Below, in pieces: positions 26,925 to 45,532 of a stretch of 64,000 bases of DNA (positions are counted from its first letter, which is position 1; the number at the start of each line of letters is the position of its first letter). Under the pieces are notes generated by a model, which was not told where the DNA came from, searched no databases, and worked only from the letters and a program-made list of their open reading frames with translations. A program made the translations under genes and the position numbers. The DNA is from an uncultured Gammaproteobacteria bacterium (GTDB taxonomy: Bacteria > Patescibacteriota > Microgenomatia > Levybacterales > UBA12049): positions 377,316 through 441,315 of the forward strand of contig OZ246394.1 of assembly GCA_965230895.1 (NCBI GenBank), in the 5' to 3' direction.

Positions 26925-27746
26925 ATGATTAAAAAAATATATACACTAACATTCTTCATTTCTTCAACATTATTGTTGACTCTTTTTTTTGCGCCTCTTG
27001 CGAGTGCTCAAGAGAATGAAACAAAGCCTATTCAACCATTATTCGCAGGTACAATTGCTACGTTCGAGAAGATATCTCCTTCAAATACTCCAATACAAAC
27101 AGATCCCGTAACAGCACCAGTTCTTGCTATGAACGAAGTGGGTTCTTATCATATAACAACTCCAGCCATTCAGATAGAACCTACTAAGCCCGCTACAGTG
27201 CAAGTATCGACAGACAAGGCTACGCAAAGCGCAAATGTGAACGTTCTAGAAAAGAGTACAAATATAGATATTTCTACTGACCCAGCAATAGATAATGCAA
27301 CCTCTCTAAAAATTGAAACCACTGAAAGCACCAGTAATTTTATAAATACAAACGATACAAGTATTGTTGAATCGGCAACGAAGGATAATAAAAGCTTGAA
27401 CTATACTGAAGGGTTTACAAACACATCAAATCAAATTCATAATCTTGAATTTATAACAGCACCTGTTTATTATTCTTCCGATTGCGCTTGTAACCGCGAA
27501 GATAGTCCCCCATTTCCATATGACAATTCTTCTCCCCTCCATACGCAATCAGCACTATTGAACATAAGTGGTCCAACAATTGTGCCTGTTGTTGGAGACA
27601 TTGTTGCGGCTGTCTTATTCCCAACCGAACCAATCAATGTTAACTTCCTTGTTCTAGCGCTCTTTGGAAATATAATGATGCTTTTACTTCGCTCGTACTT
27701 AAGACTGCGATCCGGGCGATCTCCAGCATACAGATTACCCTTGTAA
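26925..27746 (+). CDS. Secreted hypothetical protein with a C-terminal hydrophobic segment + Arg-rich tail
   Basis: Signal peptide …LTLFFAPLASAQE; C-terminus …PTEPINVNFLVLALFGNIMMLLLRSYLRLRSGRSPAYRLPL. Confidence 0.5.
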   Translation: MIKKIYTLTFFISSTLLLTLFFAPLASAQENETKPIQPLFAGTIATFEKISPSNTPIQTDPVTAPVLAMNEVGSYHITTPAIQIEPTKPATVQVSTDKATQSANVNVLEKSTNIDISTDPAIDNATSLKIETTESTSNFINTNDTSIVESATKDNKSLNYTEGFTNTSNQIHNLEFITAPVYYSSDCACNREDSPPFPYDNSSPLHTQSALLNISGPTIVPVVGDIVAAVLFPTEPINVNFLVLALFGNIMMLLLRSYLRLRSGRSPAYRLPL

Positions 27747-28805: not shown

Positions 28806-30566
28806 TTAGTTTGAGGAAAGGAGTTGCTTAACCGATTTATATCCAGGGCGAGGAAGCATATCTGACCCATAGAGACCATCAATACCTGTTTTGATACTGC
28901 TATCATCGTCCTTCCAGAAATTATATCTGTCCGACAGGATCCATATTCTCCAAGCAACACAATTAGCTTCAGATAGACATGTTTGTAAGACAGAAGCATA
29001 TTGCTCAGCCTGCACCCTATCTCCGTCACCACTAAAAACATCTTGCTCAGATACTTGTGCTATATAGCCTAACTTCTGAAGCTGCTGCAAATGCTTCTTT
29101 AATATTTGCGGATCAACTTTATCTTCACTCTCGTAGATATGGGACTGAAAACCAACGCCCACTTGTTTGACGGGAATACCTCTTTCTTCAAGCTGTGGTT
29201 TAAGTCGGGTTAAAAGTGCAACCATTGCATCCCAACGTTCGCCATCATCCTCAAGTCCAAATTCATTGATAAAAAGTCTGGCATTTGGATTCGTATTATG
29301 CGCTGTATCCAAAGCTTCAATGATAAAGTCTTCGCCCATTGCCTGATACCACTTTGTATTTCTCATAAGTTGACCTTCTTCAAACTCATCATAATCTGCT
29401 AACGGTTCATTTATAACATCCCAGGAATTAATTTTATTTCCAAAGTGTCCGACTACTGTTTCAATATGATCATTCATAATGTTTTCGATCACATCTTTCT
29501 CATTTTGTGTGGCTGCTGGCAATTGGTTAAACCAGGCAGGGTTTGCTTCTCCAAACACAAGTGCATGCCCATGTACTTTCATATTATTTTGCTCAGCTAT
29601 TTGTACTAAAGCATCAGCTTTGGCAAAAGAATACACACCACGTTTTGGTTGGAGATTAATCATCTTCATATCATTTTCAGGAGTCATCCCTCCAAAATCG
29701 CTAAGCGCGGCTTTAGCATATTGCGGATCAGAAACAAGCGGACCCAATGCCATCGCACTGCCAATCGTAAAGTCCTGTCTTTTTTTATTTGCAAGTTGCT
29801 GCAAGCTTTCCGTTGAAGAGTGATCTACTTTTATAGTTGCTCCATCAGCAAGGACAAATGAATTATTCTTAAGTTCAAGGCTCTGGAGACCCCATGCTTT
29901 ATCTTGCGCATCAAGGCCAAACCATATTTTACCTAACTTAAAGATGCCCGGATCATTGATGGTTCCAACTTCTTGCTTATTCACGATAAAAGTAAAGATG
30001 TTAGATTTCTTCTGAATCGTCAATTGCATGGTTCCAGCAGGCGTATATTTAAATTCGCGGACAGCTGTAGGGTTTTGGTTCGTTCCATCCCAAACTTTTA
30101 CAACCAATGAGCTCTTCGTAACAGCAACTTGGATGCTTTCACGCTCAATACGGAATTCGTCCGCTATAATTGGAACATTTCCGTAGAGTTGGATTGTCCC
30201 TGAGGCACTATCCTGCAAGTCAATCTTGCTTATAACAGAAAAGTCACCTTTAAGGTTTTCGATATGTGTTCCTGCAAGATTAATGGGTAGATTTTTTTGT
30301 ACAACTTTACCCTCTTGGTCAACGATACTAGTGTCTAAAGGTTGCACTTCCAAGCCGTTCTCAGTTTTTTGAACACCTGGCATATACTTCCAGTTTGCAT
30401 TTAATAAATTGTCATCTTTTTCAATTGGTTGTTTTTGATAATTCACAGTTGGGCTTCCTTTCTTCTCAAATTGAGCTGTAATTATACCTGCTGCGAGTAA
30501 CAGCACTCCTCCTGCAAGCAATAAAATACGATATTTCGTGTTGTCGAGTTTTTGTTTGTTTTTCAT
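28806..30566 (-). CDS. Membrane-anchored clan GH-A glycoside hydrolase, GH10 (xylanase)-like, with an N-terminal β-sandwich region
   Basis: Signal-anchor YRILLLAGGVLLLAAGIITA; …VHGHALVFGE…, …WDVINEPL… (acid/base Glu), …FINEFGLE… (nucleophile region, slightly atypical). Confidence 0.65.
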   Translation of the reverse strand: MKNKQKLDNTKYRILLLAGGVLLLAAGIITAQFEKKGSPTVNYQKQPIEKDDNLLNANWKYMPGVQKTENGLEVQPLDTSIVDQEGKVVQKNLPINLAGTHIENLKGDFSVISKIDLQDSASGTIQLYGNVPIIADEFRIERESIQVAVTKSSLVVKVWDGTNQNPTAVREFKYTPAGTMQLTIQKKSNIFTFIVNKQEVGTINDPGIFKLGKIWFGLDAQDKAWGLQSLELKNNSFVLADGATIKVDHSSTESLQQLANKKRQDFTIGSAMALGPLVSDPQYAKAALSDFGGMTPENDMKMINLQPKRGVYSFAKADALVQIAEQNNMKVHGHALVFGEANPAWFNQLPAATQNEKDVIENIMNDHIETVVGHFGNKINSWDVINEPLADYDEFEEGQLMRNTKWYQAMGEDFIIEALDTAHNTNPNARLFINEFGLEDDGERWDAMVALLTRLKPQLEERGIPVKQVGVGFQSHIYESEDKVDPQILKKHLQQLQKLGYIAQVSEQDVFSGDGDRVQAEQYASVLQTCLSEANCVAWRIWILSDRYNFWKDDDSSIKTGIDGLYGSDMLPRPGYKSVKQLLSSN

Positions 30567-30687: not shown

Positions 30688-31308
30688 TTATTTCGTTTCA
30701 ATACTGACAAGTTCTGCTCGAACCATGTGTCTGTAAATATCATTTGGTCCATCACATGTGATCAAAGTCACTGATGGTTTTTCTGTGGGATAAAAAACAT
30801 CAACTTGTGTAGGTTTGATTGTTTTGATAGTGGTTACTTTATATGTGGCCTTGTAATTTTTTCCGTACAAGACGATTTCTTGTCCGACTTTAACATCTTT
30901 AATTGGGAGAAAAGCATTTGCCTGTGCGTGTCCAAAAAGACCGACATTACCATCTTTGGTATTTACCAAACTTGTACCTTCTGCATAGTTCGCTACTGCT
31001 GGTTGTACTTCCCACGTCCCGTTTTTAAGTGGTACTGAAACAACTTTCTTATCCAATTTAATACTCTCGATAACGATTCGTTCTGGTTTAAATGTTTTGT
31101 TCTTTACAGCGTCTTCAGTTGTTTCAGTACCACAATCAGTTGTGCAGGCATTGGTCTGTGTTTGCCACGACAAACCCTGCACCCATTCTGAAATGTTACT
31201 TCCATTGAAGAATTCATTCTTCAAAGAGCCTAACTGTATCAGTGAAGCTAGGACTGTGATTGTTAGTATCACAGCAAACGTATTCAGTTTCATGCGTAAA
31301 ACTTTCAT
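30688..31308 (-). CDS. Sortase (intact catalytic triad)
   Basis: N-terminal TM; His in …GNVGLFGHAQ…, Cys in …TLITCDG… (TLxTC), Arg in …YRHMVRAEL…. Confidence 0.8.
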   Translation of the reverse strand: MKVLRMKLNTFAVILTITVLASLIQLGSLKNEFFNGSNISEWVQGLSWQTQTNACTTDCGTETTEDAVKNKTFKPERIVIESIKLDKKVVSVPLKNGTWEVQPAVANYAEGTSLVNTKDGNVGLFGHAQANAFLPIKDVKVGQEIVLYGKNYKATYKVTTIKTIKPTQVDVFYPTEKPSVTLITCDGPNDIYRHMVRAELVSIETK

Positions 31309-31313
31309 AAACC

Positions 31314-31493
31314 TTATTTGTTGAACATGTAACGACTGATATGTCCTACCAACATAATAAGTAATAATGTATTTACAGCGACAAATCCAACCGCAATAAG
31401 TGGGTGCACTTTGTCAGCAAGCATAAGACCTGCGGCTGATGTAGCTGGTAATGTTGTTGCTGCTCCTACTAATCCTTTTCCATATTCGTTCAT
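31314..31493 (-). CDS. 59-aa mini-protein consisting of a short N-tail plus a complete LPXTG-like sorting signal (MNEYGKGLVGAATTLPATSAAG-TM-ISRYMFNK); not in the ORF track (<60 aa)
   Basis: Translated by hand from the minus strand; paralog of the 61-aa ORF at 42746-42931 with invariant YGKG, LPATSAAG and ISRY; sits between GT2 and sortase. Confidence 0.5.
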   Translation of the reverse strand: MNEYGKGLVGAATTLPATSAAGLMLADKVHPLIAVGFVAVNTLLLIMLVGHISRYMFNK

Positions 31494-31534: not shown

Positions 31535-32833
31535 TTACCTGGTTCCCCAGGCTGTTGAGTAACCAACTCTACGAAACGCAGAGTGGCCAAGCGAAATTAT
31601 ATAAGTAAGTGTCGAAAGGATAGATTTGGTCACGATATTGTAGAAATAAAATAAATATGAGCCAAACAATACCAGACTTAAGAAGTTGCTATAAATAAAT
31701 TCTGGTAATATAGAGAGTTTTATCAACCAATCGTTCGTATCACGATCAGCATACTCACGCATAACTATGATGTTATAAATTGTTGAAATAGCAAAACTAC
31801 CCCATGCCAGGAAAATAAGTACAGGAATTAAGCCTTGTGTTCGTGTATAGCTATCAGCAAACATAAACGACAGACCAACCAATACAAACAAACTTAAGAA
31901 AGAAGCATGGCCGACAAAATCTTGAAAGACTGAAGGAATATTTCTCCAATGCTGAGCAAGGACGTGCAAACCACCGCTTGTCCAACGTGCTCGTTGCTTC
32001 CAAAGTGCTTCTGCAGTTTCTGGTACCTCTGTCCATGCAATTGCTTTTTTAGCAATTTTTACTTCCCAACCTTGTATCTTCAATCGTGCTGTAATGTCAT
32101 AATCTTCAATCAAATGACCTGTACTAAATCCATTAATTGATTCAAGCACTTCCATTCGGAAAGCTGTAAGCATTCCTTGCATGACCAATGGCCCTTTCAA
32201 GAAGCCATTATCTGAGATTTTGGTGATATTAAAGCCATGATACTCGAGTCCTTGGAGACGAGTTACTATGTTTTTATTCTTATTTGTAATTCTGACTTGG
32301 GAGCAAACGGCTCCAATTTTATAACTTGAGAATAATGTGTTTACCATATTTGGTATCGTTTCTTTATTGATGACTACATCATCATCGAAGGTGAATACCG
32401 CATCAGGCTTAATAGCAAGTGATTGGAGATATTCAATTCCATAATTTAACGCACCAGCTTTTAAGGTGTTTTTCGGAGTTCGTAGAGAAACTATCTGAAG
32501 ATTGTTCGCTGCGAGCCAATTAATCTTACTGAGCACAGGTGCTGTATCAACGTTTAAAGGAGTACAATCATCGACTACTACTACAAGTACTTTTGAATGG
32601 TATTTTACGATTGATTCAACGAGTTGTACGGTCATTTCACTCGGACGGAAGGTCGGGATAATGACTGCTACGTTTTTTCTTGAGAAGACTGATCTTGTAT
32701 GTATACTTACTGGCTTTTTCGGCACAAAGAAATGGCCGACCTGTGCGACTGTTTCTATAAGGTTCTGGTTTAATTTAGTCTTACGATTCATACTATGAGT
32801 CGTATTATAACCTATAATAATGTGGATTGTCAA
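31535..32833 (-). CDS. Processive family-2 glycosyltransferase (IcaA/PgaC/NodC/cellulose-synthase-like), membrane-embedded
   Basis: …AVIIPTFRP…, DxD …FTFDDDVV…, QxxRW …WKQRARWTSGGL…; 4-5 C-terminal TM helices. Confidence 0.8.
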   Translation of the reverse strand: MTIHIIIGYNTTHSMNRKTKLNQNLIETVAQVGHFFVPKKPVSIHTRSVFSRKNVAVIIPTFRPSEMTVQLVESIVKYHSKVLVVVVDDCTPLNVDTAPVLSKINWLAANNLQIVSLRTPKNTLKAGALNYGIEYLQSLAIKPDAVFTFDDDVVINKETIPNMVNTLFSSYKIGAVCSQVRITNKNKNIVTRLQGLEYHGFNITKISDNGFLKGPLVMQGMLTAFRMEVLESINGFSTGHLIEDYDITARLKIQGWEVKIAKKAIAWTEVPETAEALWKQRARWTSGGLHVLAQHWRNIPSVFQDFVGHASFLSLFVLVGLSFMFADSYTRTQGLIPVLIFLAWGSFAISTIYNIIVMREYADRDTNDWLIKLSILPEFIYSNFLSLVLFGSYLFYFYNIVTKSILSTLTYIISLGHSAFRRVGYSTAWGTR

Positions 32834-32912: not shown

Positions 32913-35243
32913 TTATTTACTAAGACTTACTGAGTCGATGTACAAGTTAAATGTACTATTTGGTGTTGTGTAGTATTGCAATCTTACTTTATTAACATTT
33001 GCACTTGTTGGAACATATTGGAATGATTGTACTCCAGTTGTTGGACCCGTAACCATACCCTTCCATTGTCCTGAAAGCCAATTTCCTGCTGCATCGTATT
33101 CATCGATGTAGAATCCGAATTCACCTGTTCCTGTAAGAGCACTGATGAATTGTGACCATGTGTATGTTGTAGCAGGTGTTACTGTGATCATGTCACTGAA
33201 TGCATGCGCATAATTTGTGTTAGCTGCGATGTGCAAACTGTTCGCTCCAGCATTCCCCTTTGTTGTTGTATCAACTGAGAAGTCAGATGTATCTCGTGTC
33301 CAGTTAGCTGCGAATCCACTTGTTACTGTTTCGAATCCACCATTTACTACCAAGTTTGTTGCAGGTGTCCCTGTTGGCGCAACTGTTGGAGTTGCACTTG
33401 GTGTTCCTGTAGGAGTACTTGTTGGTGTAACACTAGGCGTACCTGATGGTGTTGCTGTTGGAGTTACACTTGCTGCTGTATTAGTTAATGCATAGTTATC
33501 AACTGTAGCTGTTCCTGTTGAATTAGCTGTAAGGTATGTTTGGACTCGGATTGAGTTAACCAACGTTGATGTTGCTTTGTAAGCTCGTGAGAATGTTGAT
33601 GTAACACCATTTGCTACTGCGCCCAACCATTGACCTGAAATCCAAGTACCTTGTGCATTGTATTCGTCGATGTAGAAGCCAAGTTCGCCTGATGTTAATC
33701 CACCTGTGTTTGCTACTGCACTAAAGTTATATGTAGCTGCTGTATCGATTCCAGAAACAGTTTGGAATAAGTGAGCTGCTGCTGTATTACCTTTTATAGA
33801 TGCTTCACCATTCGCTGCTGTAACGTTTACTGTGTTATCAGTTGTCCAAGGAGTCAAACCATCTGTGAATGATCCATTAACGATAACATTATTCGCTGCT
33901 GGAGTTGGAGTTACACTTGGTGTACCTGATGGTGTTGCTGTTGGTTCAGCACTCGGTGTAGGTGTAACACTTGGTGCACCATCAATGTTGTTCAAGTTAA
34001 CACTATCAATGTATGCTGTTCCTGTAGCTCCACCTGTAAGGTAGGTTTGGACTCGAACTGAGTTCACAAGGTTTGAAGTTGCATTGTAAAGCTTTGTGAA
34101 GAACCCAACTGTACCGTTTGTAACCATACCTAACCATTGTCCTGAGATCCAGTTACCGTTCGCATCATATTCATCGACATAGAATCCGAGTTCACCTGCA
34201 GTCAAACCTGTTGCATTATAGAATGCATCAAGGATGTAACTAGAGTTAAATGAAACATTTGTCAAACCTGAGAATAAGTGAGTAGCTGAAGCAGCACCTG
34301 TCATACTAACTGATTGTGTTGGTGAACCGTAGTTACCATGGTTAGCATTGTCAGCTTTTACTGCTGTTGCATTATCTGTGTTCCATCCATTTGCAAGTCC
34401 TGCTTCAAATCCTGAGTTTTGAAGTACATTTGCTCCAGGGATAGTGATACCTTGCTCTGTTGTAACAACTTGGATTTGTCCTGCGTTAACCTTTGTTTGA
34501 ACATAATTCGCCATTGTTGTAAGGTTTGCTGTTGTTACTGTGTATTCGTAATTAGGGTTCTTTGCAACTGCTGTGTCATGGAAGACAAGAATTAACCATT
34601 GCTTGTTTGCAATTGCTTGATCAACCCATGCTTGTACTTGTGCTGGTGTTGTCGCGTCATTAACATCTTGTACCATCAAGATAGCTCTATTATAAGGTGC
34701 ACTGTTTAATGCATCTCGATCTTGGAAAGCTCGATGTGATTTGTAGTATTTAAGGATTTCTGCAATTGTGTTGTTGTCATATGCTCCAAATGGTGAAGCA
34801 AAATTAGTAACGTTTAATCCATTTGCTTGGAATGCTGTATTTGAAGTTGTTAATTCAGCTTCATTTTGTGTAGCTGTAACTGTAGGCATTTCTACGTGAG
34901 TTCGTGTGTGACCACCAATTTCCCATCCATAAACATCTTGCAATTCTCGTACCTGTGCCCAAGTAATTCCTGGCTGATTATCATCCAAAGTAATTTGGCC
35001 ATCTGGAACTCCTGAAGTTAGGTAAAGAACACCATCGATTCCTCGTGCTTCAAGAATTGGAGCTGCAAGTGTTCGAGTAGATGCGAAACCATCATCAAAT
35101 GTGAAAGAAACTCGTGCCTTATTAAGTTCTGAGAGGTTAGTTATTTTAGCTGCTGATGCTACTGGAGCTTGTGACAAAACAAGAGCCGCCATCAATGCGA
35201 AAGCGGTCAAAGACTTTACTACTTTGTTTACTAAGTTGTTCAT
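32913..35243 (-). CDS. Large secreted surface protein: N-terminal NodB polysaccharide deacetylase + 3 carbohydrate-binding (CenC/CBM4_9-like) β-sandwich modules separated by Pro/Thr linkers
   Basis: Signal peptide; NodB motifs …VSFTFDDGFAS…, …GGHTRTHVEM…; 3 × …GELGFYVDEYDANGNWISGQWLGMVTNG… modules; linkers TPTPSAEPTATPSGTPSVTPTP. Confidence 0.8.
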   Translation of the reverse strand: MNNLVNKVVKSLTAFALMAALVLSQAPVASAAKITNLSELNKARVSFTFDDGFASTRTLAAPILEARGIDGVLYLTSGVPDGQITLDDNQPGITWAQVRELQDVYGWEIGGHTRTHVEMPTVTATQNEAELTTSNTAFQANGLNVTNFASPFGAYDNNTIAEILKYYKSHRAFQDRDALNSAPYNRAILMVQDVNDATTPAQVQAWVDQAIANKQWLILVFHDTAVAKNPNYEYTVTTANLTTMANYVQTKVNAGQIQVVTTEQGITIPGANVLQNSGFEAGLANGWNTDNATAVKADNANHGNYGSPTQSVSMTGAASATHLFSGLTNVSFNSSYILDAFYNATGLTAGELGFYVDEYDANGNWISGQWLGMVTNGTVGFFTKLYNATSNLVNSVRVQTYLTGGATGTAYIDSVNLNNIDGAPSVTPTPSAEPTATPSGTPSVTPTPAANNVIVNGSFTDGLTPWTTDNTVNVTAANGEASIKGNTAAAHLFQTVSGIDTAATYNFSAVANTGGLTSGELGFYIDEYNAQGTWISGQWLGAVANGVTSTFSRAYKATSTLVNSIRVQTYLTANSTGTATVDNYALTNTAASVTPTATPSGTPSVTPTSTPTGTPSATPTVAPTGTPATNLVVNGGFETVTSGFAANWTRDTSDFSVDTTTKGNAGANSLHIAANTNYAHAFSDMITVTPATTYTWSQFISALTGTGEFGFYIDEYDAAGNWLSGQWKGMVTGPTTGVQSFQYVPTSANVNKVRLQYYTTPNSTFNLYIDSVSLSK

Positions 35244-35386: not shown

Positions 35387-38023
35387 TTATTTGTATAGAG
35401 GGTTTTTTAAAAGATAGTCATTTATAATAATTTGTTCCTTTACTATTTTTTCAAAATCTACATCTGAATTTAACGCAAAATCAGCATTTTTGAAGTTTTG
35501 ATTAAAGAAAATTACTGCTTTAATCTTAGGATAGCTTGGTAATGTTACAAGAGCGTCTTTAAACCACTGTTCTTTATCTCCACCTTTACTTGTCGTGGAT
35601 GTTTCTGCAAGCATAATTGGTTTGTTCAATTTATCCAATTCTCCATAGGCTTTACCTATTGTTTGATCAAGAGTAAGCCATTTTGTTTTTGCATTTGAAC
35701 TTCCCCAATTAAATCCACTGAACCCTACCCAATCAACATACTCATCGCCTGGGTAATATGAAAGCATTGATGATGTACTTCCATGACTGTCTGTATTATT
35801 AGGAGCCCAGACCCAGACAACATTGGTTGCACCTTCTTCTTCAAAGATGTTATGAACATGTCTCCACATCGCGATATATGTTTTAGGGTCATTTTTGCTA
35901 CCCCACGGATACCAATCTCCATTCATCTCATGCGCAAATCGTAAGAAAACAGGCTGTTTAAAATCAGCTGCCTCTTTTGCAAATTTTCTTATGTACTCAT
36001 CATGGTCACCTTCAATGATTGATTGGGGAGAATAAATATTCTTCGCGGAAGGATCAGTACTAAATTTTTTAGATTCCCATGGTTCCCAAGTAATTATTGG
36101 AACAAGATTATTTTCAGAAAGTTTTTGTACATATACTTTGTCAAATGTATTGGTTGATGACCAATCCTGATAGTACATACTTAAAGATGTTTTTTCCTCA
36201 GGTATTGTAGTTAACTTAAAGTTGTTTGAATGAGCATTAAGAGAGGGGTGATAATATCCATAGTATACACCACTTGCCGGAACCAATAACTCTTTTTGAG
36301 GAGTTGGTGAAATTTGCTCGCTTAAGGTTTTCAAACTGGCAGATGTTTGAAATTCTGGGATAGTGGTGACATAATAACCAATTAATCCCATGACTACTAC
36401 TGCCGTTAAACCGCGTGTCAATAAAGAATAACCAAAGGTGTTACTCATGATTCGTGAAGTACTATTTTTGATTGCGAATACTATGTTTTCGAAAACTGAA
36501 AAGTCGTAATTTTCTCTAACGATAAGGTAAAATCCTAAACTCAATATAATGACATCAAAAGCAGCCCAAAAGAAATTAAGAAGAGCACCTACATTACCAA
36601 CGGCATGTTGATACCCGTACAATAACCCACATGCTAATAAAATAGCGACAATCCCTTGAAGTTTATAAACAGCGAAAGGATTTTCTTTCTCATATTTCTT
36701 AATAGTTACAATAAAGGAAAGTTCTTTTTTAAACACACTCGAAAGGAATGCGCTTACAAATATTGGAAACGAAGCAATATCTAGTACAAGACTTTTGATA
36801 GGATTTCGGAAAAGTGTAGCATAAAGGATACTGTTATACAGTAACAACGGACCATAAACAAATGCGAGATACTGCCATGTATTTGCATTTACAAGGGCAA
36901 GACCAAAGAATAAATATGGTAATGGAGCAAGCATTAGGATCAAATCACGAACACCGATCAAATAATATGATGCAGATAACAAATAATGAAACTTTTGTCT
37001 TATTGTTAAAGGACCAAATACTATTTGTTTTAGGTAATGAAATGAAACATCAAAACTTCCTTTTGCCCAACGTTGTTGTTGACTAAAGTATTGTTTCAAT
37101 GAAGAAGGAGCAATACCTTCAGCGAGGACTTCAGGAATAAATACACCTTTACTGCCTCTTAAATGAAGCTCCAACGAAGTTGCATAGTCTTCAGTAATAA
37201 ACTTAGTATCCATTCCACCAATGCTATCTAATGCGCTTCTTCGAATCGCAAAATTTGTACCGCATAAGAAAAGTGCATTATCATGTCCTTTAGAGTCACA
37301 TATGTGGTCAAAGAAGAAGATTTGATGCGCTGCAGAAGCTTTTGCAACCCATGTTTTTTCATTTTTGTATCTTTGTGGACTTTGCGCAAAATCAATTGAA
37401 GGATTATTAAATGGTTTAGCTATCTCAGTTAGGAAATGCTCTTTTACAGCAAAATCGGCATCAAGTACAATATCTAATGTATTAAAAGCATCTTGTGCTG
37501 GAATTTCTCGCAGACCATTATTGATATTACCTGCCTTAAATCCTCCACCTACAGAACGTGCAATATGGATTACATCCAGCTCTTCTGCTAAGGCTTGAAT
37601 GTCTCTCCAATTGTCTTTATTTGCAGCTTTACCGTCATTTAATACGATAACTTTAGGTTGTACATTTGGGTTAGTAGTACTAATGTAATAATCTCTAGCT
37701 TTCTTTGCTGCCAAAATAGTTTCTCTTATTACTTCTTCTGGCTCTCCGCAGACGCAAATAAACATATTCATTTCTACATTCTTATTCTCATTTACCGCAG
37801 TGTAACGTCTGTATTTTCGAGGCCAAAGAGAATAAAACATTCCATAGAGATGAAATATTGTATGGAGTTCAGCAATGAAAAGAATAATACTAAACACCAT
37901 CAAGGCTGGGGAGAAATTAATAAAAGTAATTCTATAGAAGAAATAGACAGTAAGAAGCATCGCTCCGCTCAGAAGAAGGGAACGCAATCCTATACTTTTT
38001 AAGAACGTCTTAAAATCATTCAT
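35387..38023 (-). CDS. Cellulose-synthase-like processive GT2 (BcsA-like) fused to a C-terminal clan GH-A (GH26-like) glycoside hydrolase domain
   Basis: GT2: …VLDADF…, …FITEDYATS… (TED), …QQQRWAKGS… (QxxRW), multiple TM; C-terminal: …LRFAHEMNGDWYPWG…, …YYPGDEYVDWVGFSGFN…, …IMLAETS…. Confidence 0.8.
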   Translation of the reverse strand: MNDFKTFLKSIGLRSLLLSGAMLLTVYFFYRITFINFSPALMVFSIILFIAELHTIFHLYGMFYSLWPRKYRRYTAVNENKNVEMNMFICVCGEPEEVIRETILAAKKARDYYISTTNPNVQPKVIVLNDGKAANKDNWRDIQALAEELDVIHIARSVGGGFKAGNINNGLREIPAQDAFNTLDIVLDADFAVKEHFLTEIAKPFNNPSIDFAQSPQRYKNEKTWVAKASAAHQIFFFDHICDSKGHDNALFLCGTNFAIRRSALDSIGGMDTKFITEDYATSLELHLRGSKGVFIPEVLAEGIAPSSLKQYFSQQQRWAKGSFDVSFHYLKQIVFGPLTIRQKFHYLLSASYYLIGVRDLILMLAPLPYLFFGLALVNANTWQYLAFVYGPLLLYNSILYATLFRNPIKSLVLDIASFPIFVSAFLSSVFKKELSFIVTIKKYEKENPFAVYKLQGIVAILLACGLLYGYQHAVGNVGALLNFFWAAFDVIILSLGFYLIVRENYDFSVFENIVFAIKNSTSRIMSNTFGYSLLTRGLTAVVVMGLIGYYVTTIPEFQTSASLKTLSEQISPTPQKELLVPASGVYYGYYHPSLNAHSNNFKLTTIPEEKTSLSMYYQDWSSTNTFDKVYVQKLSENNLVPIITWEPWESKKFSTDPSAKNIYSPQSIIEGDHDEYIRKFAKEAADFKQPVFLRFAHEMNGDWYPWGSKNDPKTYIAMWRHVHNIFEEEGATNVVWVWAPNNTDSHGSTSSMLSYYPGDEYVDWVGFSGFNWGSSNAKTKWLTLDQTIGKAYGELDKLNKPIMLAETSTTSKGGDKEQWFKDALVTLPSYPKIKAVIFFNQNFKNADFALNSDVDFEKIVKEQIIINDYLLKNPLYK

Positions 38024-38068
38024 GGACTATAGGATATCATAAATACGTCCAAAAGTCAAGCTATAGGT

Positions 38069-39151
38069 CTATAAAGAGGTTTTAAATGCGTTGAGGCTTG
38101 ATGAGGATGAATCTATTCTCCAATCGGCTTCTTTTATTAAATTAAACCAAATAACCTCATTTACCCTTGGAAAAGCGGTATGAATCGAATAGAACATATC
38201 ATTTACCCAAGCTTCTTTATTGCCCCCTTGTTCGGAAGAAGCAATCTCGGCAATTATTATGGGCTTATCATATTGAGCAGCAATATATTGATAGGTTGGC
38301 TGAAAGAGTGCACTAAAAGACCTCCAGCCCCCATAACTACGTGTTGTTCCGAAGTTAAAGCCATCAATACCTATAACATCAACTACATCGCTTCCTGGAT
38401 AATATCCATTTATTTCACTAGGATTTTCTGTTATATTCACGCACCACATCCATTGCACATTCGTAACTCCTTCTTGCTGGAAAACTGTATGTATATGACG
38501 GTAAGCTGCAATATATTCTTCAGGCCTCTTTCCCCACGGATACCAATCACCATTCATTTCATGCCCAAAGCGCAATGTGACAGGACTGCCGTATTGCTTT
38601 ATGGACTGGGCAAATTGTCTTATATATGTATCATGCGTTCCTTGGGAAATTTCTTTAAGGTAATCAACAGCTTGAGATGAGCCTTGTTCAGGGTTCCAGG
38701 GCTCCCAGGCCAGTTGTATTTTTTTCCTGCTTTGTTTACTGTATGTAAGTTGAGTAAGGTTAAAACCTTTATTATTTTGATTCCCAAATTGTTTAAAAAT
38801 AGAAAGTGTTGTTATATTTGTATCTAATTGTTTTTCTAAAGAAGTAACTGTATTTTGGTTATTTGCGTAGTCATCAACTACAACACCAAATAGTAGTGTA
38901 TTATTTTTCGGAACTACTGCTTGTATTGTGGGAGTCGGAGTCACAACTGTAATAGGTTTTGGTTTTGCAGTAGGAGTTGGTGTAATCTCTTGAAATCGAG
39001 TTGCTGTAGTTTTTTGACTGGCAGCAAAGGCTGGTTGTGTTGTTTTAGATTGTGATTTAAAAAAGAATGCAGTGAGCAAGGTACTACTTAAGACGATGAG
39101 AAGGAGCGTTATCATTGTTATATTTTTCTTAGAGAACTTAGTAAATTTCAT
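38069..39151 (-). CDS. Membrane-anchored clan GH-A (GH26-like) glycoside hydrolase, paralog of the C-terminal domain of the upstream fusion
   Basis: N-terminal TM; …LRFGHEMNGDWYPWG…, …YYPGSDVVDVIGIDGFN…, …IIIAEIAS…. Confidence 0.7.
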   Translation of the reverse strand: MKFTKFSKKNITMITLLLIVLSSTLLTAFFFKSQSKTTQPAFAASQKTTATRFQEITPTPTAKPKPITVVTPTPTIQAVVPKNNTLLFGVVVDDYANNQNTVTSLEKQLDTNITTLSIFKQFGNQNNKGFNLTQLTYSKQSRKKIQLAWEPWNPEQGSSQAVDYLKEISQGTHDTYIRQFAQSIKQYGSPVTLRFGHEMNGDWYPWGKRPEEYIAAYRHIHTVFQQEGVTNVQWMWCVNITENPSEINGYYPGSDVVDVIGIDGFNFGTTRSYGGWRSFSALFQPTYQYIAAQYDKPIIIAEIASSEQGGNKEAWVNDMFYSIHTAFPRVNEVIWFNLIKEADWRIDSSSSSLNAFKTSL

Positions 39152-39260: not shown

Positions 39261-42035
39261 TTAGTTAGCTGATAGACTAACAGAGTCGATATAGATAGGG
39301 AATGTACTGTTTGGTGTTTTGTAATACTGAAGTCGTACACTTTTAACTGTTGCACTCGTAGGAGTATACGAGAAAGTTTTTGTTCCTGTTGATGCTCCAT
39401 TAACCATACCTTTCCATTGTCCTGAGACCCAAGTACCTGCTGCATCATATTCATCGATATAGAATCCGAATTCACCTGTTCCTGCAAGCGCCATTATGTA
39501 TTGTGTCCATGTATATGTTTTTGTTGAATCAACTGAAACACTAGAACTGAATGCGTGAGCGTAAGCTGTATTTGCTGGAATGAACAGACTGTTCGCTCCA
39601 TTGTTTCCCTTTGATGTAGTATCAATTGTTGTAACATCTCCTGTGTCATGAGTCCAATTTGATGCAAATCCACCTGCAACTGTTTCAAAACTACCGTTTG
39701 GAATTAAGTTAGTTACTACAGGTGTTGTAGTTGGTGTAGGCGTAACAGTACTTGTTGGTGTCACAGTTGGTGTTGGTGAAACTGTACCTGTAGGTGCTGC
39801 TGTGTTTGTCATACTATAGTTGTCTACAAATGCTGTCCCGTTAGAGTTTGCAGCCATGTATGTTTGAATGCCAATTCTTGATACAAGTGCACTAGTAGCT
39901 TTATATGTTTTTTCAATGCTTGTTACTGCACCATTTACAACTGATCCCAACCATTGACCAGAAATCCATGTTCCATTTATGTCATATTCATCGATATAGA
40001 AGCCAAGCTCCCCTGATGTAACTGCTGTTGCATCAGCTGTAGCTTTAAGCAAGTATGTAGCTGTTGTATCAATAGCGTTTAGGTTGTAGAACAAGTGAGA
40101 TGCTGTTGTTGTTCCTGTAAATTTAACTGCATTTTGGCCACCATTTGCATCAGCGACAACGTTTGCAGGTTTATCAGTAGTCCAACCATTTGAGATCCCT
40201 TGATCAAATGAACCATTTGTAATTACGTTCGTTGCTGCAGGTGTCGGAGTTGCAACCGCTGGACCAGTTAAACTATAGTTGTCAACATATGCTGTTCCGT
40301 TAGAGTTTGCAGCCATGTATGTTTGAATACCAATTCTCGCAACGAGATTACTTGTAGCTTTATAAGCTTTTTGGAAAGTTGACGTTACACCGTTAGATAC
40401 ATTACCAAGCCACTGTCCTGATATCCAAGTACCTGCTGCATTGTATTCATCAATATAAAAACCAAGTTCTCCACTAGTAAGACCATTTGCGTTTACCGTT
40501 GAACTAAGAAGGTATGTAGCTGTTGTATCAATAGCGTTTAGGTTGTAGAACAAGTGAGATGCTGTTGTTGTTCCTGTAAATTTAACTGCATTTTGGCCAC
40601 CATTTGCATCAGCGACAACGTTTGCAGGTTTATCAGTAGTCCAACCATTTGAGATCCCTTGATCAAATGAACCATTTGTAATTACGTTCGTTGCTGCAGG
40701 TGTTGGCGTAGGTGTACCACTTACACTAGCTGTAGGAGTTGGAGTTACACTTGTTGTTGGCGCAGGTGTACCATCCAAGTTGTATACTTGAACACTATCA
40801 ACATATGCTGTACCTGTTGCACCCGCTGTAAGGTATGTCTGTACTCGGATAGTATTTACCAATTCAGAAGTTGCGTTATAAAGCTTTGTGAAGAATCCAA
40901 TTGTACCATTTGTAACCATACCCAACCATTGTCCTGAGGTCCAGTTACCATTTGCATCATATTCATCGACGTAGAATCCGAGTTCACCTGATGTTAAGCC
41001 AAGCGAATTAACGAAAGCGTCCAATACATAACTTGAATTGTATGATACTTGTACATTTCCTGAGAATAAATGTCCTTCAGTTGCAGTTCCAGTCAAGTTA
41101 ATAGATTGTACTGGTGAACCGTAATTACCATTATTTCCATTGTCAGCAGCTACACCAGCAGCATTATCTGTTGTCCAACCGTCAGCGAGACCATTTTCAA
41201 ATCCTGAGTTTTGCAAGATGTTCACTCCTGGGATTGTAATTCCCTGTTCAGTTGTAACGACTTGGATTTGTCCTGCATTAACCTTTGTTTGAACATAACT
41301 CGCCATTGTTGTAAGGTTTGCTGTTGTTACTGTATATTCATAATTTGGATTTTTCTTTGTTGCTGTGTCATGGAACACAAGGATCAACCATCGCTTTTCA
41401 GTGATTGCTTGATCAACCCATGCTTGGACTTGTGCTGATGTTGTCGCGTCATTAACGTCTTGTACCATTAATATATCTTTATGAAGTGGGTTACTATTTA
41501 ATGCATCTCGATCTGCAAAACCTCTGTGAGACTTATACAATTTCAAAATTTCAGTTAATGTCATGGTATCGTATGCACCAAACGGTGAAGCAAAGTTAGT
41601 AACGTTTAATCCATTTGCTTTAAATGCTGCGTTTGAATTTGCAAGTTCTGCTACGTTTTGTTCTCGTGTAATTGTAGGCATTTCAGCATGGTCTACTGTG
41701 TGACCACCGATTTCCCAACCATAAACGTTTTGGAGTTCTCGTACTTGGTCCCAAGTAATTCCTGGTTGGTTATCATCTAGCGTAGCTGTACCATCTGGAA
41801 CACCAGATGTGAGGTAGAGAACACCATCAATACCATGTGCTTCAAGAATTGGAGCTGCGAGTGTTCGAGTTGATGCAAATCCATCGTCAAATGTGAAGGA
41901 AACTCGTGCACGATCAAGATCTGAGATACTATTTAATCGAGCTGCTTGAGCAATTGGTGCTTGCGCCAAGAAGAGGACCGCACTCAAAACGATTGCGGTT
42001 AATGCTCGTACTATTTTATTAGTTAATGTATTCAT
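39261..42035 (-). CDS. Large secreted surface protein (paralog of 32913-35243): NodB deacetylase + 4 CBM-like modules; contains a 202-bp perfect intragenic direct repeat
   Basis: N-terminal ~200 aa nearly identical to the paralog (…RVSFTFDDGFASTRTLAAPILEA…); modules with …GELGFYIDEY…SGQWLG…; identical DNA at 40053-40254 and 40512-40713. Confidence 0.8.
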   Translation of the reverse strand: MNTLTNKIVRALTAIVLSAVLFLAQAPIAQAARLNSISDLDRARVSFTFDDGFASTRTLAAPILEAHGIDGVLYLTSGVPDGTATLDDNQPGITWDQVRELQNVYGWEIGGHTVDHAEMPTITREQNVAELANSNAAFKANGLNVTNFASPFGAYDTMTLTEILKLYKSHRGFADRDALNSNPLHKDILMVQDVNDATTSAQVQAWVDQAITEKRWLILVFHDTATKKNPNYEYTVTTANLTTMASYVQTKVNAGQIQVVTTEQGITIPGVNILQNSGFENGLADGWTTDNAAGVAADNGNNGNYGSPVQSINLTGTATEGHLFSGNVQVSYNSSYVLDAFVNSLGLTSGELGFYVDEYDANGNWTSGQWLGMVTNGTIGFFTKLYNATSELVNTIRVQTYLTAGATGTAYVDSVQVYNLDGTPAPTTSVTPTPTASVSGTPTPTPAATNVITNGSFDQGISNGWTTDKPANVVADANGGQNAVKFTGTTTASHLFYNLNAIDTTATYLLSSTVNANGLTSGELGFYIDEYNAAGTWISGQWLGNVSNGVTSTFQKAYKATSNLVARIGIQTYMAANSNGTAYVDNYSLTGPAVATPTPAATNVITNGSFDQGISNGWTTDKPANVVADANGGQNAVKFTGTTTASHLFYNLNAIDTTATYLLKATADATAVTSGELGFYIDEYDINGTWISGQWLGSVVNGAVTSIEKTYKATSALVSRIGIQTYMAANSNGTAFVDNYSMTNTAAPTGTVSPTPTVTPTSTVTPTPTTTPVVTNLIPNGSFETVAGGFASNWTHDTGDVTTIDTTSKGNNGANSLFIPANTAYAHAFSSSVSVDSTKTYTWTQYIMALAGTGEFGFYIDEYDAAGTWVSGQWKGMVNGASTGTKTFSYTPTSATVKSVRLQYYKTPNSTFPIYIDSVSLSAN

Positions 42036-42141: not shown

Positions 42142-42732
42142 TTATTTTTCGTTAGAAAGTTCTATCTTTACTAATGCAGCTTTTACAATATATTGCTTGT
42201 TCGAGAACGTTTCATCTGATGTAACAAGAGTCAAAATAGGTGTTTTTGTTGGTGCAAAAACATTTGTATCTGTTGTTTTTGCCAATCTTGAAGAAGTTAC
42301 TTTATATGTTGCTTTTTGACCGTTACCATAGACTACAATTTCAGTATTATTATTAAGTTGTTGGATTCGAGTAAATCCATCAAGTCTATCGTTTGCAAAA
42401 AGTCCAACGTTTCCTTCTTTATCATTGACCAAGCTTGTGCCTTCAGCAAAGTTGGCAACATGTGGAAGAAGCTCCCAAGTACCATCTCTTAATGGTACTG
42501 AAAATACTGGAAGGTCAATTTCTACAGAAGAGATAACGATTCGTTCAGGAGTGAAAGCTGATAATGTCTTAACAGGAGTAACTGTTGGTGTCTTTGATGC
42601 AAATGGCGTTGCTGTCAATTCTTGAGAATTAGCTACAGTAGATGACACACCAGTACCAAGCGCACCAAGTTGCGCGATACTAGCAAAAGCCGCCAAAACA
42701 AAAATAGTTGTATAAACACTTACTTTCTTCAT
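42142..42732 (-). CDS. Sortase-fold paralog with all three catalytic residues substituted (degenerate / pseudo-sortase)
   Basis: Aligns along its length with the sortase at 30688-31308, but GLFGHAQ→GLFANDR (His→Asn), TLITCDG→TLVTSDE (Cys→Ser), VRAEL→VKAAL (Arg→Lys). Confidence 0.7.
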   Translation of the reverse strand: MKKVSVYTTIFVLAAFASIAQLGALGTGVSSTVANSQELTATPFASKTPTVTPVKTLSAFTPERIVISSVEIDLPVFSVPLRDGTWELLPHVANFAEGTSLVNDKEGNVGLFANDRLDGFTRIQQLNNNTEIVVYGNGQKATYKVTSSRLAKTTDTNVFAPTKTPILTLVTSDETFSNKQYIVKAALVKIELSNEK

Positions 42733-42745
42733 ATCGTTAATTGAC

Positions 42746-42931
42746 TTATTTAGCTCTATTAACTAAATATCGACTGATTTGACCTGCTAAGATAACAAGC
42801 CATACGACATTAAGTACTATAAAACCTGCAAGTACAATCGGATTACTTAAGTCAGCAAAGAATGCTCCTGCTGCTGAAGTAGCCGGTAATACCGCTGCGC
42901 CTAATACTTGTCCTTTTCCGTAATCTGTCAT
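42746..42931 (-). CDS. 61-aa mini-protein, paralog of 31314-31493 (MTDYGKGQVLGAAVLPATSAAG-TM-ISRYLVNRAK)
   Basis: Same architecture and invariant LPATSAAG; same position between GT2 and sortase homolog. Confidence 0.5.
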   Translation of the reverse strand: MTDYGKGQVLGAAVLPATSAAGAFFADLSNPIVLAGFIVLNVVWLVILAGQISRYLVNRAK

Positions 42932-42946: not shown

Positions 42947-44209
42947 TTAGTTTTTTGTACCCCACTTTGTTGAGAATCCTGCCTTATTGAAGGCTGCGAG
43001 TCCCCAGTTATATGGAGCATTGAATAATGATATTCTTGTTGCAATTGGCTTAAAGACTTTGTTGTATACGATAAATAAGTATGATCCGAGCAAGATAAGA
43101 CTTAACAAGTTACTGTAAATAAGTTCTGGAAGAACGGTTAACTTCATTAACCAATCTCTCTTATCACTATCTTCATATAAAGATAATGAAACGACATTAA
43201 AGATGAATGCTACAAGGAAGTTGAATAATGAAAGAGCGAATAATATAAGTACTGTTTCTGGATTACTTGTTTCAGTTCGTACAAAAAAGAATGACAACAC
43301 AATCAATCCAAAAAGACTGATGAACAACATATGTCCGATAAGATCTTGGTAAATAACATCAAATTTCTTCCAGAATTCACCCAACACATGGAGTCCACCA
43401 CTTACCCATCGAACACGCTGTTTCCAGAGTGCTTCGATTGATTCAGGAACTGTTGTCCATGCAATTGCTTTTTGAGCAATCTTTACATTCCAACCTTCAC
43501 TCTTCAATCGTGCTGTAATATCATAGTCTTCAATCAAGTGGCCTTTTGTAAAACCATTAATTTCTTTAACTGCTGCTGTTCGAAAAGCTGTTAACATGCC
43601 ATGCATTACAAGTGGTCCTTTTAAGAAACCATTGTCAGCAATCTTTGTGATATTAAAGTTATGGTATTCAAGTGCTTGCAATCGAGTTAAGAAGTTTTTG
43701 TTCTTATTAATAACTCGTACTTCAGAACAGACGGCACCGACTGTATCGTCAGAATACAATGTCGCAACCATTTGTGGAACTGTGTTCTTAGTAATGATCA
43801 CATCATCATCGAAAGTGAAGATAACATCTGGAACATGCTTGAGACTCAAGACATATTCAATACCATGATTTAAGGCCGCTGCTTTTAACTCATTTTTAGG
43901 AGTTCGCAAATAAGCCATATTATTGTGTTCGTTTGCAAGAGCTTTGATTTTGTTAAGTGTCTTAAGATTTTTTTCAGTTTCTGGAGTACAATCATCAATG
44001 ACAACAAGAATTGCTTCAGGATGCCAATCAAGAATAGACTTAATTAGGTTATAGGTCATATCAGTTGGAGTATGAGTTGGTACCAGAATTGCAGGAAGTT
44101 TACTCTGAATAAGCTTCTCACTCATCAAGATTATTTCCTTTTTAGGAGCGAAAAAGTTCACGGATTCTTCCGCGATTCGTTTGAATGTATTTGTATTTTT
44201 TCTCTTCAT
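42947..44209 (-). CDS. Processive family-2 glycosyltransferase, paralog of 31535-32833
   Basis: …AILVVIDDCTPE…, …FTFDDDVI…, QxxRW …WKQRVRWVSGGL…; C-terminal TM helices. Confidence 0.8.
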   Translation of the reverse strand: MKRKNTNTFKRIAEESVNFFAPKKEIILMSEKLIQSKLPAILVPTHTPTDMTYNLIKSILDWHPEAILVVIDDCTPETEKNLKTLNKIKALANEHNNMAYLRTPKNELKAAALNHGIEYVLSLKHVPDVIFTFDDDVIITKNTVPQMVATLYSDDTVGAVCSEVRVINKNKNFLTRLQALEYHNFNITKIADNGFLKGPLVMHGMLTAFRTAAVKEINGFTKGHLIEDYDITARLKSEGWNVKIAQKAIAWTTVPESIEALWKQRVRWVSGGLHVLGEFWKKFDVIYQDLIGHMLFISLFGLIVLSFFFVRTETSNPETVLILFALSLFNFLVAFIFNVVSLSLYEDSDKRDWLMKLTVLPELIYSNLLSLILLGSYLFIVYNKVFKPIATRISLFNAPYNWGLAAFNKAGFSTKWGTKN

Positions 44210-44266: not shown

Positions 44267-45532
44267 TTAATTATTAATTTTAGGATCGTAGTTATCTACG
44301 ATTTCTAAGAAATCTGATGTCGCTTCAATATACTCACGATACTGATCAGTTGTTGTAAGTGGTCCATCGTTTAAAAGCGCTGGATCATTCCTTCGATCAA
44401 GAATATTTTCAAAAACTTCGACTGGACCACCTCGTGATTGGACAAATGGAGCAAAAGTAAGCCGTAAATCTCCTTTAGATGTAATATCAGTCAAAATCCG
44501 TACAGATGGTTGTCGCGTAATTTCTTTTGGATCATCAATCCCATAACGCTTCGTAAGTTCCTCTTGAGCACCTGGTTGTCCTGCAAGTCGTTTCGCAATC
44601 CAAGAATAACCTCGATGGATTCCTTCTTTCAAAGCAAGTATGCGTTGAAGGTTTTCTGGATCAGTCATATTATCAATATTTATTCCTTGCTCTCCTCCGA
44701 AAACAACAGTAAATCCATAAGGTGCAGTTTGGCGTTGCGCGATGGTAAACCCTTCTGTTGGCATACCTTTATGTTCGAGTACTGCTTTGGCTGTTCGGTC
44801 AAGGACGCCAATGACGCGATCCCCCAATTCTCTATCTTGCATTACCCGTTGCTCATCTTCCATATTTGGAACTTTTTCTTCTGTTGGTACGAAGTTATTC
44901 AAGTTGTGGATTGTTGCATGGAAATGTGGTAGGCCAATACTTTGACTTGTTGCAGGTGCAATTGCACTTGCTGAGTTTTCCATAATAATCGCTTTTTTAC
45001 GACTACCCTTTTGATTTTGTCCAGTGACATCTTTATGCATTTCCTGGAGGAGATACATCTGGGATGTTACATATCTGAATTTTGTTTCGTCTGAAAGTTC
45101 TGTCCAAAGAAGAGGAACTGGCATACCTGATTTATCAACTTCTGGTAAGCCATTATGAAGAACATCTTCAGTAGCTCCAACTCCAAGCACATCAATTTCT
45201 CCATACGCACTTGTAGGCTCTGATAAGGAGAATGTATCGCCCACTACTTCGTGAACATATGTGCCATTTTCTTTCAATCCAGGAGTTAGAAAAATATCTT
45301 TATAATAGTCAGCGTTATTCATATTTAGAATTCGCTGACGAAGCTCACCTGGATCATTTTTAAATGAAGTAGTTGCTTTGGAATCAGTAGCGTACACACT
45401 CGTTCTCATTCCTGTTGGCATGATTTTTTCGTGGGCTCCAGCTAACAAGCTAGACATGAGATTATCTACAGTTGCAATCCTTTGAGGACCTTCTGGATGA
45501 ATATGGCGAGTTCGAGCTTCTAGTACTGGCAT
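44267..45532 (-). CDS. Hypothetical 421-aa protein (possible HIT/GalT-like nucleotidyl-transfer motif HFHATIH; family unassigned)
   Basis: Long ORF with coding-like composition in the same-strand array; only a weak H-x-H-x-x-x-H motif recognised. Confidence 0.4.
   Translation of the reverse strand: MPVLEARTRHIHPEGPQRIATVDNLMSSLLAGAHEKIMPTGMRTSVYATDSKATTSFKNDPGELRQRILNMNNADYYKDIFLTPGLKENGTYVHEVVGDTFSLSEPTSAYGEIDVLGVGATEDVLHNGLPEVDKSGMPVPLLWTELSDETKFRYVTSQMYLLQEMHKDVTGQNQKGSRKKAIIMENSASAIAPATSQSIGLPHFHATIHNLNNFVPTEEKVPNMEDEQRVMQDRELGDRVIGVLDRTAKAVLEHKGMPTEGFTIAQRQTAPYGFTVVFGGEQGINIDNMTDPENLQRILALKEGIHRGYSWIAKRLAGQPGAQEELTKRYGIDDPKEITRQPSVRILTDITSKGDLRLTFAPFVQSRGGPVEVFENILDRRNDPALLNDGPLTTTDQYREYIEATSDFLEIVDNYDPKINN

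Follow-up and report, generated by a model that had tools for sequence, protein, structure and literature searches.

A 64,000-nucleotide stretch of contig OZ246394.1 (positions 377,316–441,315, forward strand; GenBank assembly GCA_965230895.1), hereafter the window, carries at 42142..42732 on the minus strand a gene for a 196-amino-acid sortase homologue that we term SrtB. Judged by its sequence and modelled structure, SrtB is a genuine pseudo-sortase: the sortase fold is kept and thiol-based transpeptidation is no longer possible. By comparison with its closest orthologue, the gene is not decaying and is retained under purifying selection. Its probable role, as gene order and conservation suggest, is that of a non-enzymatic partner within a gene cassette for a sugar polymer, found in ultra-small bacteria of the candidate phyla radiation (CPR)/Patescibacteria type. 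A search of open-access papers and bioRxiv found no paper on a pseudo-sortase or inactive sortase, and none describing the cassette. By the literature found, what is new here is the first pseudo-sortase, a predicted pseudo-enzyme derivative of the sortase family lying in a conserved cassette that is new to that literature. Sortases are regarded purely as enzymes, and a dead sortase under selection would imply a second, binding or scaffolding function of the fold.

SrtB keeps the sortase fold and has lost the catalytic triad

The window encodes a second, intact sortase of the same family, SrtA (30688..31308, minus strand; 206 amino acids), with the triad H127/C186/R195. An earlier reading of the window from sequence alone (the sequence-only reading) had described the two proteins as homologous from end to end, and BLASTP confirmed this (42% identity over 199 columns, E = 7e-48), with an alignment that is gapless around all three sortase motifs. 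GLFGHAQ of SrtA becomes GLFANDR in SrtB (His to Asn), TLITCDG becomes TLVTSDE (Cys to Ser) and IYRHMVRAEL becomes NKQYIVKAAL (catalytic Arg to Gln, with the second Arg replaced by Lys), so that the triad corresponds to N114/S172/Q180. The sequence-only reading had called the third change as YRHMVRAEL to YIVKAAL; it was right that the Arg is lost and left out the residue that matters, since the catalytic Arg aligns with Gln180.

These positions are those of the triad and do not lie away from it. In alignments with class A sortases from the PDB, the His, the Cys and the first Arg of the intact paralog fall on the catalytic His, Cys and Arg, and an hmmalign profile alignment of about 170 homologues has H/C/R at the three columns in 152. 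Ten positions are 100% invariant among the 80 intact core members of the family; SrtB departs from them at exactly the His, Cys and Arg and keeps the other seven (W86, N94, A96, G107, N108, Y143 and T171). At positions conserved in at least 75% of the family, it retains 40 of 50. In an AlphaFold2 (AF2) model, N114 ends the strand 108–114, S172 ends the strand 166–173 and Q180 lies within the strand 175–192, which are the canonical β4-end, β7-end and β8 positions. Placement of the triad rests on the paralog and profile alignments, because direct phmmer alignments of SrtB to distant PDB sortases slip by 1–3 residues near the missing His. Misalignment of the triad was ruled out by the gapless paralog alignment, the PDB sortase alignments and the AF2 secondary-structure positions.

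The remainder of the protein is that of a sortase. The AF2 model (mean predicted local distance difference test score 80.9, with most of the domain above 90) has an N-terminal transmembrane helix at residues ~6–23, a Thr/Pro-rich linker at 28–54 that is of low confidence or disordered, and an eight-stranded sortase β-barrel at ~60–192. SrtB matches the Pfam family Sortase (PF04203) over the full model (1–125 of 125; E = 1.4e-13; 51.1 bits against a cutoff of 26.6). All of the top 50 Foldseek matches in the PDB were sortases, with probability 1.0 and target-normalised template-modelling scores up to 0.79, the best being to sortase E and sortase A structures. A hydrophobic helix (6–23) followed by a disordered linker is the membrane anchor expected of sortases, and we predict that SrtB is anchored in the membrane with its domain outside the cell. 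The protein contains no Cys, and its single His (H91) is at a position that varies across the family. Thus, the full-length PF04203 match and the β-barrel make SrtB a member of the sortase superfamily by evolution and fold, but, lacking the defining His-Cys-Arg triad, it should not be classed among functional sortases.

The frame is intact, as had been noted from the letters alone: the open reading frame (ORF) starts with ATG and runs for 196 codons without a frameshift. Identical SrtB protein was found on five contigs from several sequencing runs. A frameshift or assembly artefact was ruled out by the intact ORF, by the five contigs from different runs and by an orthologue with the same residues.

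The inactive copy is under purifying selection

That orthologue, in assembly GCA_964507055.1 (locus L005), shares 84% amino acid identity with SrtB and the same three substitutions, and its locus carries both sortase modules. Between the window and L005, the rates of non-synonymous (dN) and synonymous (dS) substitution in SrtB by the Nei–Gojobori method (NG86) were 0.106 and 0.97, giving dN/dS of 0.11 (bootstrap 0.06–0.17) for this single pair. The same comparison gave 0.16 for the active sortase, 0.15 for the mini-peptide encoded beside SrtB, and 0.07 and 0.08 for the two family-2 glycosyltransferases (GT2 B and GT2 A, respectively) described below. Across this genome pair, dN of the dead copy is lower than dN of its active paralog, a comparison that is independent of dS. 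Synonymous differences separate the two genomes at two of the three replacement codons (AAC/AAT and CAA/CAG); the third, TCA for Ser172, is the same in both. At least six further sequences with dead triads have intact ORFs at 45–60% identity. Enzyme homology, loss of catalytic residues and purifying selection, which together define a pseudo-enzyme operationally, are thus all found in SrtB. The view that this is a pseudo-enzyme rather than a decaying gene, first reached from sequence alone, is therefore supported; taken as a whole, the earlier interpretation is partly supported.

Early decay of a redundant duplicate would explain the same residues differently: copy B would be dispensable, its triad mutated first by chance and its ORF not yet broken. 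Dead copies are indeed confined to a duplicated clade (below), always with an intact paralog in the vicinity; evolution is faster in several dead lineages than in intact ones, and some dead members have also lost the invariant W86, N94 or T171. Yet dN/dS of SrtB is no higher than that of the active paralog, 40 of the 50 well-conserved family positions are kept, and at least seven dead full-length ORFs persist at 40–60% identity in an AT-rich genome where stops arise easily. We therefore consider decay quite improbable for SrtB.

A conserved four-gene cassette, duplicated in the window

SrtB belongs to a cassette, shared by all of some 35 related loci, in which genes for a GT2, a mini-peptide, a sortase and a CE4 polysaccharide deacetylase follow one another. 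We collected 16 related loci from a scan of genome collections and 17 from a metagenome scan; the gene order was kept at 16/16 genome loci and at every metagenome locus long enough. The genes are tightly packed, frequently with 4-nt overlaps, and every single-copy cassette recovered has an H/C/R sortase. The mini-peptides have ~60 residues: about 14 residues (MTDYGKGxVLGAAx), the motif LPAT[S/A/T], a short linker, one transmembrane helix and a basic tail (SR[YF]LxN..). As far as its sequence tells, the mini-peptide consists of little more than a sorting signal, with hardly any passenger. Pfam and NCBIfam gave no match to this family, which is annotated only as 'hypothetical'.

By record title, the cassette is carried by candidate division WWE3, Levyibacteriota (Levyibacteria/Microgenomates), Saccharibacteria and 'Patescibacteria group' genomes. 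'Uncultured Gammaproteobacteria bacterium' is the record title of several cassette-bearing metagenome-assembled genomes (L005/L008, L011, L012 and L021), the window's nearest relative among them. This label is doubtful and looks like a taxonomic mis-assignment, because all other carriers are Patescibacteria. Sortases are unusually common in CPR genomes and their substrates are largely unknown (PMC6744442); a cassette conserved across Patescibacteria offers an undescribed context for them, and may hold more general interest than the dead copy.

The window holds two copies of the cassette, both on the minus strand. In copy B, GT2 B (42947..44209) is a processive glycosyltransferase with C-terminal transmembrane helices, PgaC/IcaA-like below the equivalog cutoff. 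Mini-peptide B (42746..42931; 61 amino acids) reads MTDYGKGQVLGAAV-LPATS-AAG..., followed by a transmembrane helix and the basic tail SRYLVNRAK. It is preceded by a strong Shine–Dalgarno sequence (AAAGGAG), and its stop codon lies 13 nt ahead of the SrtB start. SrtB is thus accompanied by a predicted cognate LPXTG-type substrate, with the octamer LPATSAAG intact, as the sequence-only reading had pointed out. Polysaccharide deacetylase B (39261..42035) has an N-terminal CE4 domain (PF01522, E = 1e-14), after which come repeated β-rich modules with Thr/Pro linkers between them. A duplicated module (..TNVITNGSFDQGISNGWTTDKPANVVADANGGQNAVKFTGTTTASHLFYNLNAIDTTATYLL..) is encoded by exact repeats in the DNA, each at least 138 nt long (40079–40216 and 40538–40675, 459 nt apart). 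Deacetylase B is the fastest-evolving gene of the cassette, with 68% amino acid identity to its orthologue versus 84–89% for the sortase and GT2.

Copy A consists of GT2 A (31535..32833) and polysaccharide deacetylase A (32913..35243; PF01522), paralogs of their B counterparts, together with SrtA and mini-peptide A (31314..31493). The latter, of 59 amino acids, has the same LPATSAAG octamer as mini-peptide B and a strong Shine–Dalgarno sequence, AAGGAGGTGA, upstream. With its triad in place, SrtA is presumed to be the trans-acting catalytic sortase. We found no LPXTG-type substrate in the window beyond the two mini-peptides.

In NCBIfam, the models of sortase classes A–F and GN gave at best 20–24 bits for SrtB and 24–36 bits for SrtA, against cutoffs of 140–166, and only SrtA barely reached the generic sortase model TIGR01076 (40.1 against 39.35). 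Because neither paralog reaches any class A–F cutoff, the sortase family of this cassette is, by these profile scores, a distinct Patescibacteria-type group.

The two genes lying between the cassette copies (35387–39151, minus strand) encode a fusion of a GT2 with a GH26-like domain (878 amino acids) and a GH26-like protein (360 amino acids); GH denotes a glycoside hydrolase family. Both are absent from L005, where the two deacetylase genes adjoin.

Triad loss recurs in the duplicated clade

Three observations go beyond the sequence-only reading: both modules are cassette copies, loss of the triad recurs among members of the duplicated clade and, on every contig of sufficient length, an intact paralog is near. 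In neighbour-joining trees, the duplicated 'B' clade was monophyletic with 100% bootstrap support for the GT2s and, independently, for the sortases. Three of its members have intact H/C/R triads (L027/P0003, P0004 and P0006) and one shows partial loss (Y/C/R in L026). The dead triads are N/S/Q in the window and L005, D/A/Q in L024, D/V/Q in L052, N/V/L in L025, L/V/T in L028 and E/V/T in L030. Since a monophyletic clade holds intact, partly lost and dead members, the cassette was, as reconstructed from these trees, duplicated in tandem and the triad was lost after duplication. SrtB otherwise kept its invariant positions, its frame and its close placement in the operon under purifying selection. 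In a family-wide neighbour-joining tree, the fast-evolving dead sequences group together, probably through long-branch attraction.

The range of residues suggests that, once catalysis is lost, the three triad sites drift freely, which argues against a new conserved chemistry. This bears on whether SrtB could still be an enzyme, either with Ser172 as a nucleophile that forms a slow or trapped acyl-enzyme, as the sequence-only reading had offered as an alternative, or with a fold that catalyses another reaction. The Cys-to-Ser change is a single-step, isosteric one, and Ser172 with its TCA codon is shared by both N/S/Q genomes. However, the His (general acid/base) and the Arg (transition-state stabiliser) are both gone, no other Cys or conserved His is available, and the D/A/Q, D/V/Q, N/V/L, L/V/T and E/V/T proteins have Ala or Val at the equivalent of Ser172. 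Nor did the positions conserved in dead members contain an alternative conserved polar cluster. A Ser-based trap is therefore unlikely, and altered chemistry of either kind very improbable.

An intact family paralog lies 3–11 kb away in 4/4 of the dead-sortase species on contigs of at least 13 kb (window, L005, L024/L049 and L052/L053). In two of them, the module bearing the dead sortase is directly followed by a reduced second module (L024:11235-13146 and L052:6048-8040) that consists of an intact H/C/R sortase and a deacetylase, without GT2 or mini-peptide. Because the second module has no mini-peptide, the B mini-peptide is the sole cognate-type substrate at these loci. In the B clade, mini-peptide residues 1–20 (up to LPATSA) have 97% mean identity, versus 76% for the transmembrane helix and 40–60% for the dead sortases, indicating that the cleavable N-terminal part is still under the strongest constraint.

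Two variants depart from this pattern. In one lineage recovered from two samples (L028:1122-1241 and L029), the mini-peptide is cut in frame to 39 amino acids by deletion of the whole N-terminal part including LPATS. The remnant (MIFADFTNP...) keeps the transmembrane helix, the basic tail and its own Shine–Dalgarno sequence (AAGGAG), and adjoins the L/V/T pseudo-sortase. On a single metagenomic contig (L051:379-1260), a mini-peptide-like segment (..VILPASGIAS.., transmembrane helix, SRYVTNKK) is fused in frame to a pseudo-sortase with the triad D/A/K. This fusion could be a Rosetta-stone hint of physical pairing or an artefact of assembly or read-through, and we treat it as tentative. Together, the deletion and the fusion are suggestive of a mini-peptide/pseudo-sortase pair that works without transpeptidation.

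Beyond the B clade, more distant homologues at 28–36% identity also have degenerate triads: K/C/R (P0064), D/Y/R (P0065), I/T/R (P0086), A/S/T (P0092), Y/N/K (P0095) and T/T/G (P0099). P0081 is likewise among the distant homologues with a degenerate triad in the profile alignment of about 170 homologues. Triad loss may thus recur well beyond the B clade.

A possible non-catalytic role in the cassette

With confidence a little above even, we favour the interpretation that SrtB is a pseudo-enzyme serving cassette B in a way that needs no catalysis, and that cleavage is provided in trans by the intact paralog. In this model, the sortase protein of the cassette would have a second, non-catalytic role as a structural or peptide-binding subunit, working physically with the mini-peptide membrane helix, the synthase and the deacetylase. 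Once the cassette had been duplicated, SrtA, 11 kb away, would see an identical LPATSAAG and supply the chemistry in trans; the trans step would be cleavage at LPAT↓S and transfer of the 18-residue N-terminal peptide. In copy B, only the non-catalytic role would have stayed under selection.

Several points weigh against this model. We infer the function of SrtB from comparative genomics only, and we likewise infer the processing of mini-peptide B by SrtA and a structural role of any cassette sortase. The dN/dS value comes from one close orthologue pair whose dS is near 1, that is, near saturation. Relative to the adjacent GT2, terminal branches are about 1.5–2 times longer in the dead lineages outside N/S/Q than in intact B orthologues, so their constraint appears reduced, not abolished, and some relaxation is real; the lineage of the window is the least altered of the dead ones. 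Bootstrap support within the B clade is 3–40%, and the triad was lost once or several times. The deletion and fusion variants are on short metagenomic contigs, the fusion on one contig.

Alternatively, SrtB could be a decoy or negative regulator that binds LPATS of mini-peptide B and shields it from active sortases. The peptide would then persist at full length in the membrane, perhaps as a subunit of the synthase. In a variant of this idea, SrtB would titrate or allosterically control the active paralog. The conserved positions on the substrate side are largely kept and the catalytic ones lost, the LPATS region is 97% conserved beside dead sortases, and the mini-peptide and pseudo-sortase genes are tightly coupled, all of which speaks for such a role. 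Dead paralogs that regulate envelope enzymes also have precedent in the degenerate LytM factors EnvC and NlpD and in the iRhoms, which by analogy lends the idea some plausibility. In EnvC/NlpD and the iRhom dead proteases, as in SrtB, the fold and partner surface are kept, catalytic residues are lost and selection acts alongside active relatives, but their folds and families are different and a regulatory role of SrtB is only putative. Against shielding, L028/L029 keep the pseudo-sortase though LPATS is deleted, which implies that shielding of the motif is not the whole function. In addition, the intact but substrate-less sortase retained beside the dead one in L024 and L052 is more in keeping with mini-peptide B being processed than with its being protected. 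A pure shielding model is weakened by both the deletion and the reduced modules, although it keeps some probability for the lineage of the window, and we judge the decoy and its variants, taken jointly, to be unlikely.

The favoured model of a catalysis-independent role can be extended further, in a form that we consider speculative and on the unlikely side. Cassette sortases would be obligatory structural subunits of a synthase/mini-peptide/sortase/deacetylase machine that couples a polymer resembling poly-N-acetylglucosamine to the 18-residue peptide MTDYGKGQVLGAAVLPAT by sortase chemistry; in that case no pseudo-sortase would have been documented before SrtB, which would partner the LPATS peptide and the synthase non-catalytically and leave the chemistry to a paralog. 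A possible route of coupling would be ligation to free amines made by the deacetylase, or to peptidoglycan. The natural variants (intact triad, dead triad, dead triad with the motif deleted, and dead sortase fused to the peptide) separate a catalytic from a structural role, and they point to possible sortase-linked polysaccharide/peptide surface chemistry in organisms that are not yet genetically manipulable.

Comparison with known systems

Canonical sortases (MEROPS C60/PF04203, classes A–F) share with the cassette sortases the fold, the N-terminal anchor and the motif layout (..GH.., TLxTC and an Arg in β8), as well as an adjacent substrate gene with LPAT[S/A], a transmembrane helix and a basic tail. 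None of these features is missing from the intact paralog. Solved structures show Streptococcus pyogenes SrtA with LPATS and LPATA bound (7s4o and 7s51). In contrast to canonical sortases, SrtB has Asn/Ser/Gln at the triad and no Cys, and both cassette sortases score below the class A–F cutoffs. The 'substrate' is a 60-residue peptide with ~14 residues before the motif instead of a surface protein, and the genes sit within a polysaccharide synthase/deacetylase operon.

This operon resembles the IcaADBC and PgaABCD systems for poly-N-acetylglucosamine, in which a GT2 synthase and a CE4 deacetylase are also encoded in one operon. Here, a PF01522 gene is adjacent in all related loci, and the best NCBIfam model for both GT2s was PgaC_IcaA (TIGR03937). 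A small membrane protein encoded directly after the synthase is a further likeness, recalling IcaD/PgaD. However, the GT2 scores of 121.6 (B) and 119.7 (A) bits are far from the equivalog cutoff of 422.3, the small protein is unrelated and has a sortase motif, and a sortase gene lies between it and the deacetylase. The cassette is alike in kind and not a member of these systems.

PEP-CTERM/exosortase systems of the XrtG type (PMC1569441) similarly couple a dedicated sorting transpeptidase and a short signal to exopolysaccharide glycosyltransferases, and the cassette GT2s weakly match the NCBIfam models of XrtG- and XrtP-associated glycosyltransferases. Exosortases differ in being polytopic membrane proteins of unrelated fold, in recognising PEP-CTERM instead of LPXTG signals and in having no dead paralog.

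Genes around the cassette copies

Beyond the cassette copies, the window forms a dense island of surface-glycan genes, with GT2–GH26 and PMT–GH8 fusions, a GH10 glycoside hydrolase, a 1378-amino-acid protein with multiple glycosyltransferase domains and a pyruvyl transferase. The GH10 gene (28806..30566, minus strand) is a conserved neighbour: it lies downstream of the duplicated locus not only in the window but also in L005, L024/L049 and L052.

A third sortase of an unrelated type (FLFAHSS.., LILQTCTP; H/C/R intact) is encoded just past the DAGK gene at L049:14957-15508 and L052:10906-11463, both on the minus strand. The family profile detected no third sortase in the window, and Pfam none in the genes scanned beside the DAGK gene. 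The equivalent place in the window (26925–27746) is occupied by the gene for a 273-amino-acid secreted Thr/Ser-rich protein whose C-terminal region has a hydrophobic segment and a basic tail (..FPTEPINVNFLVLALFGNIMMLLLRSYLRLRSGR..); from its sequence, this C-terminus may represent another type of sorting signal.

Directly upstream of GT2 B, a 421-amino-acid ORF (44267–45532, minus strand) had no Pfam match. Unannotated proteins are encoded at the equivalent position in L005 (480 amino acids) and in L052/L053 (446 and 478 amino acids, cut at the contig end).

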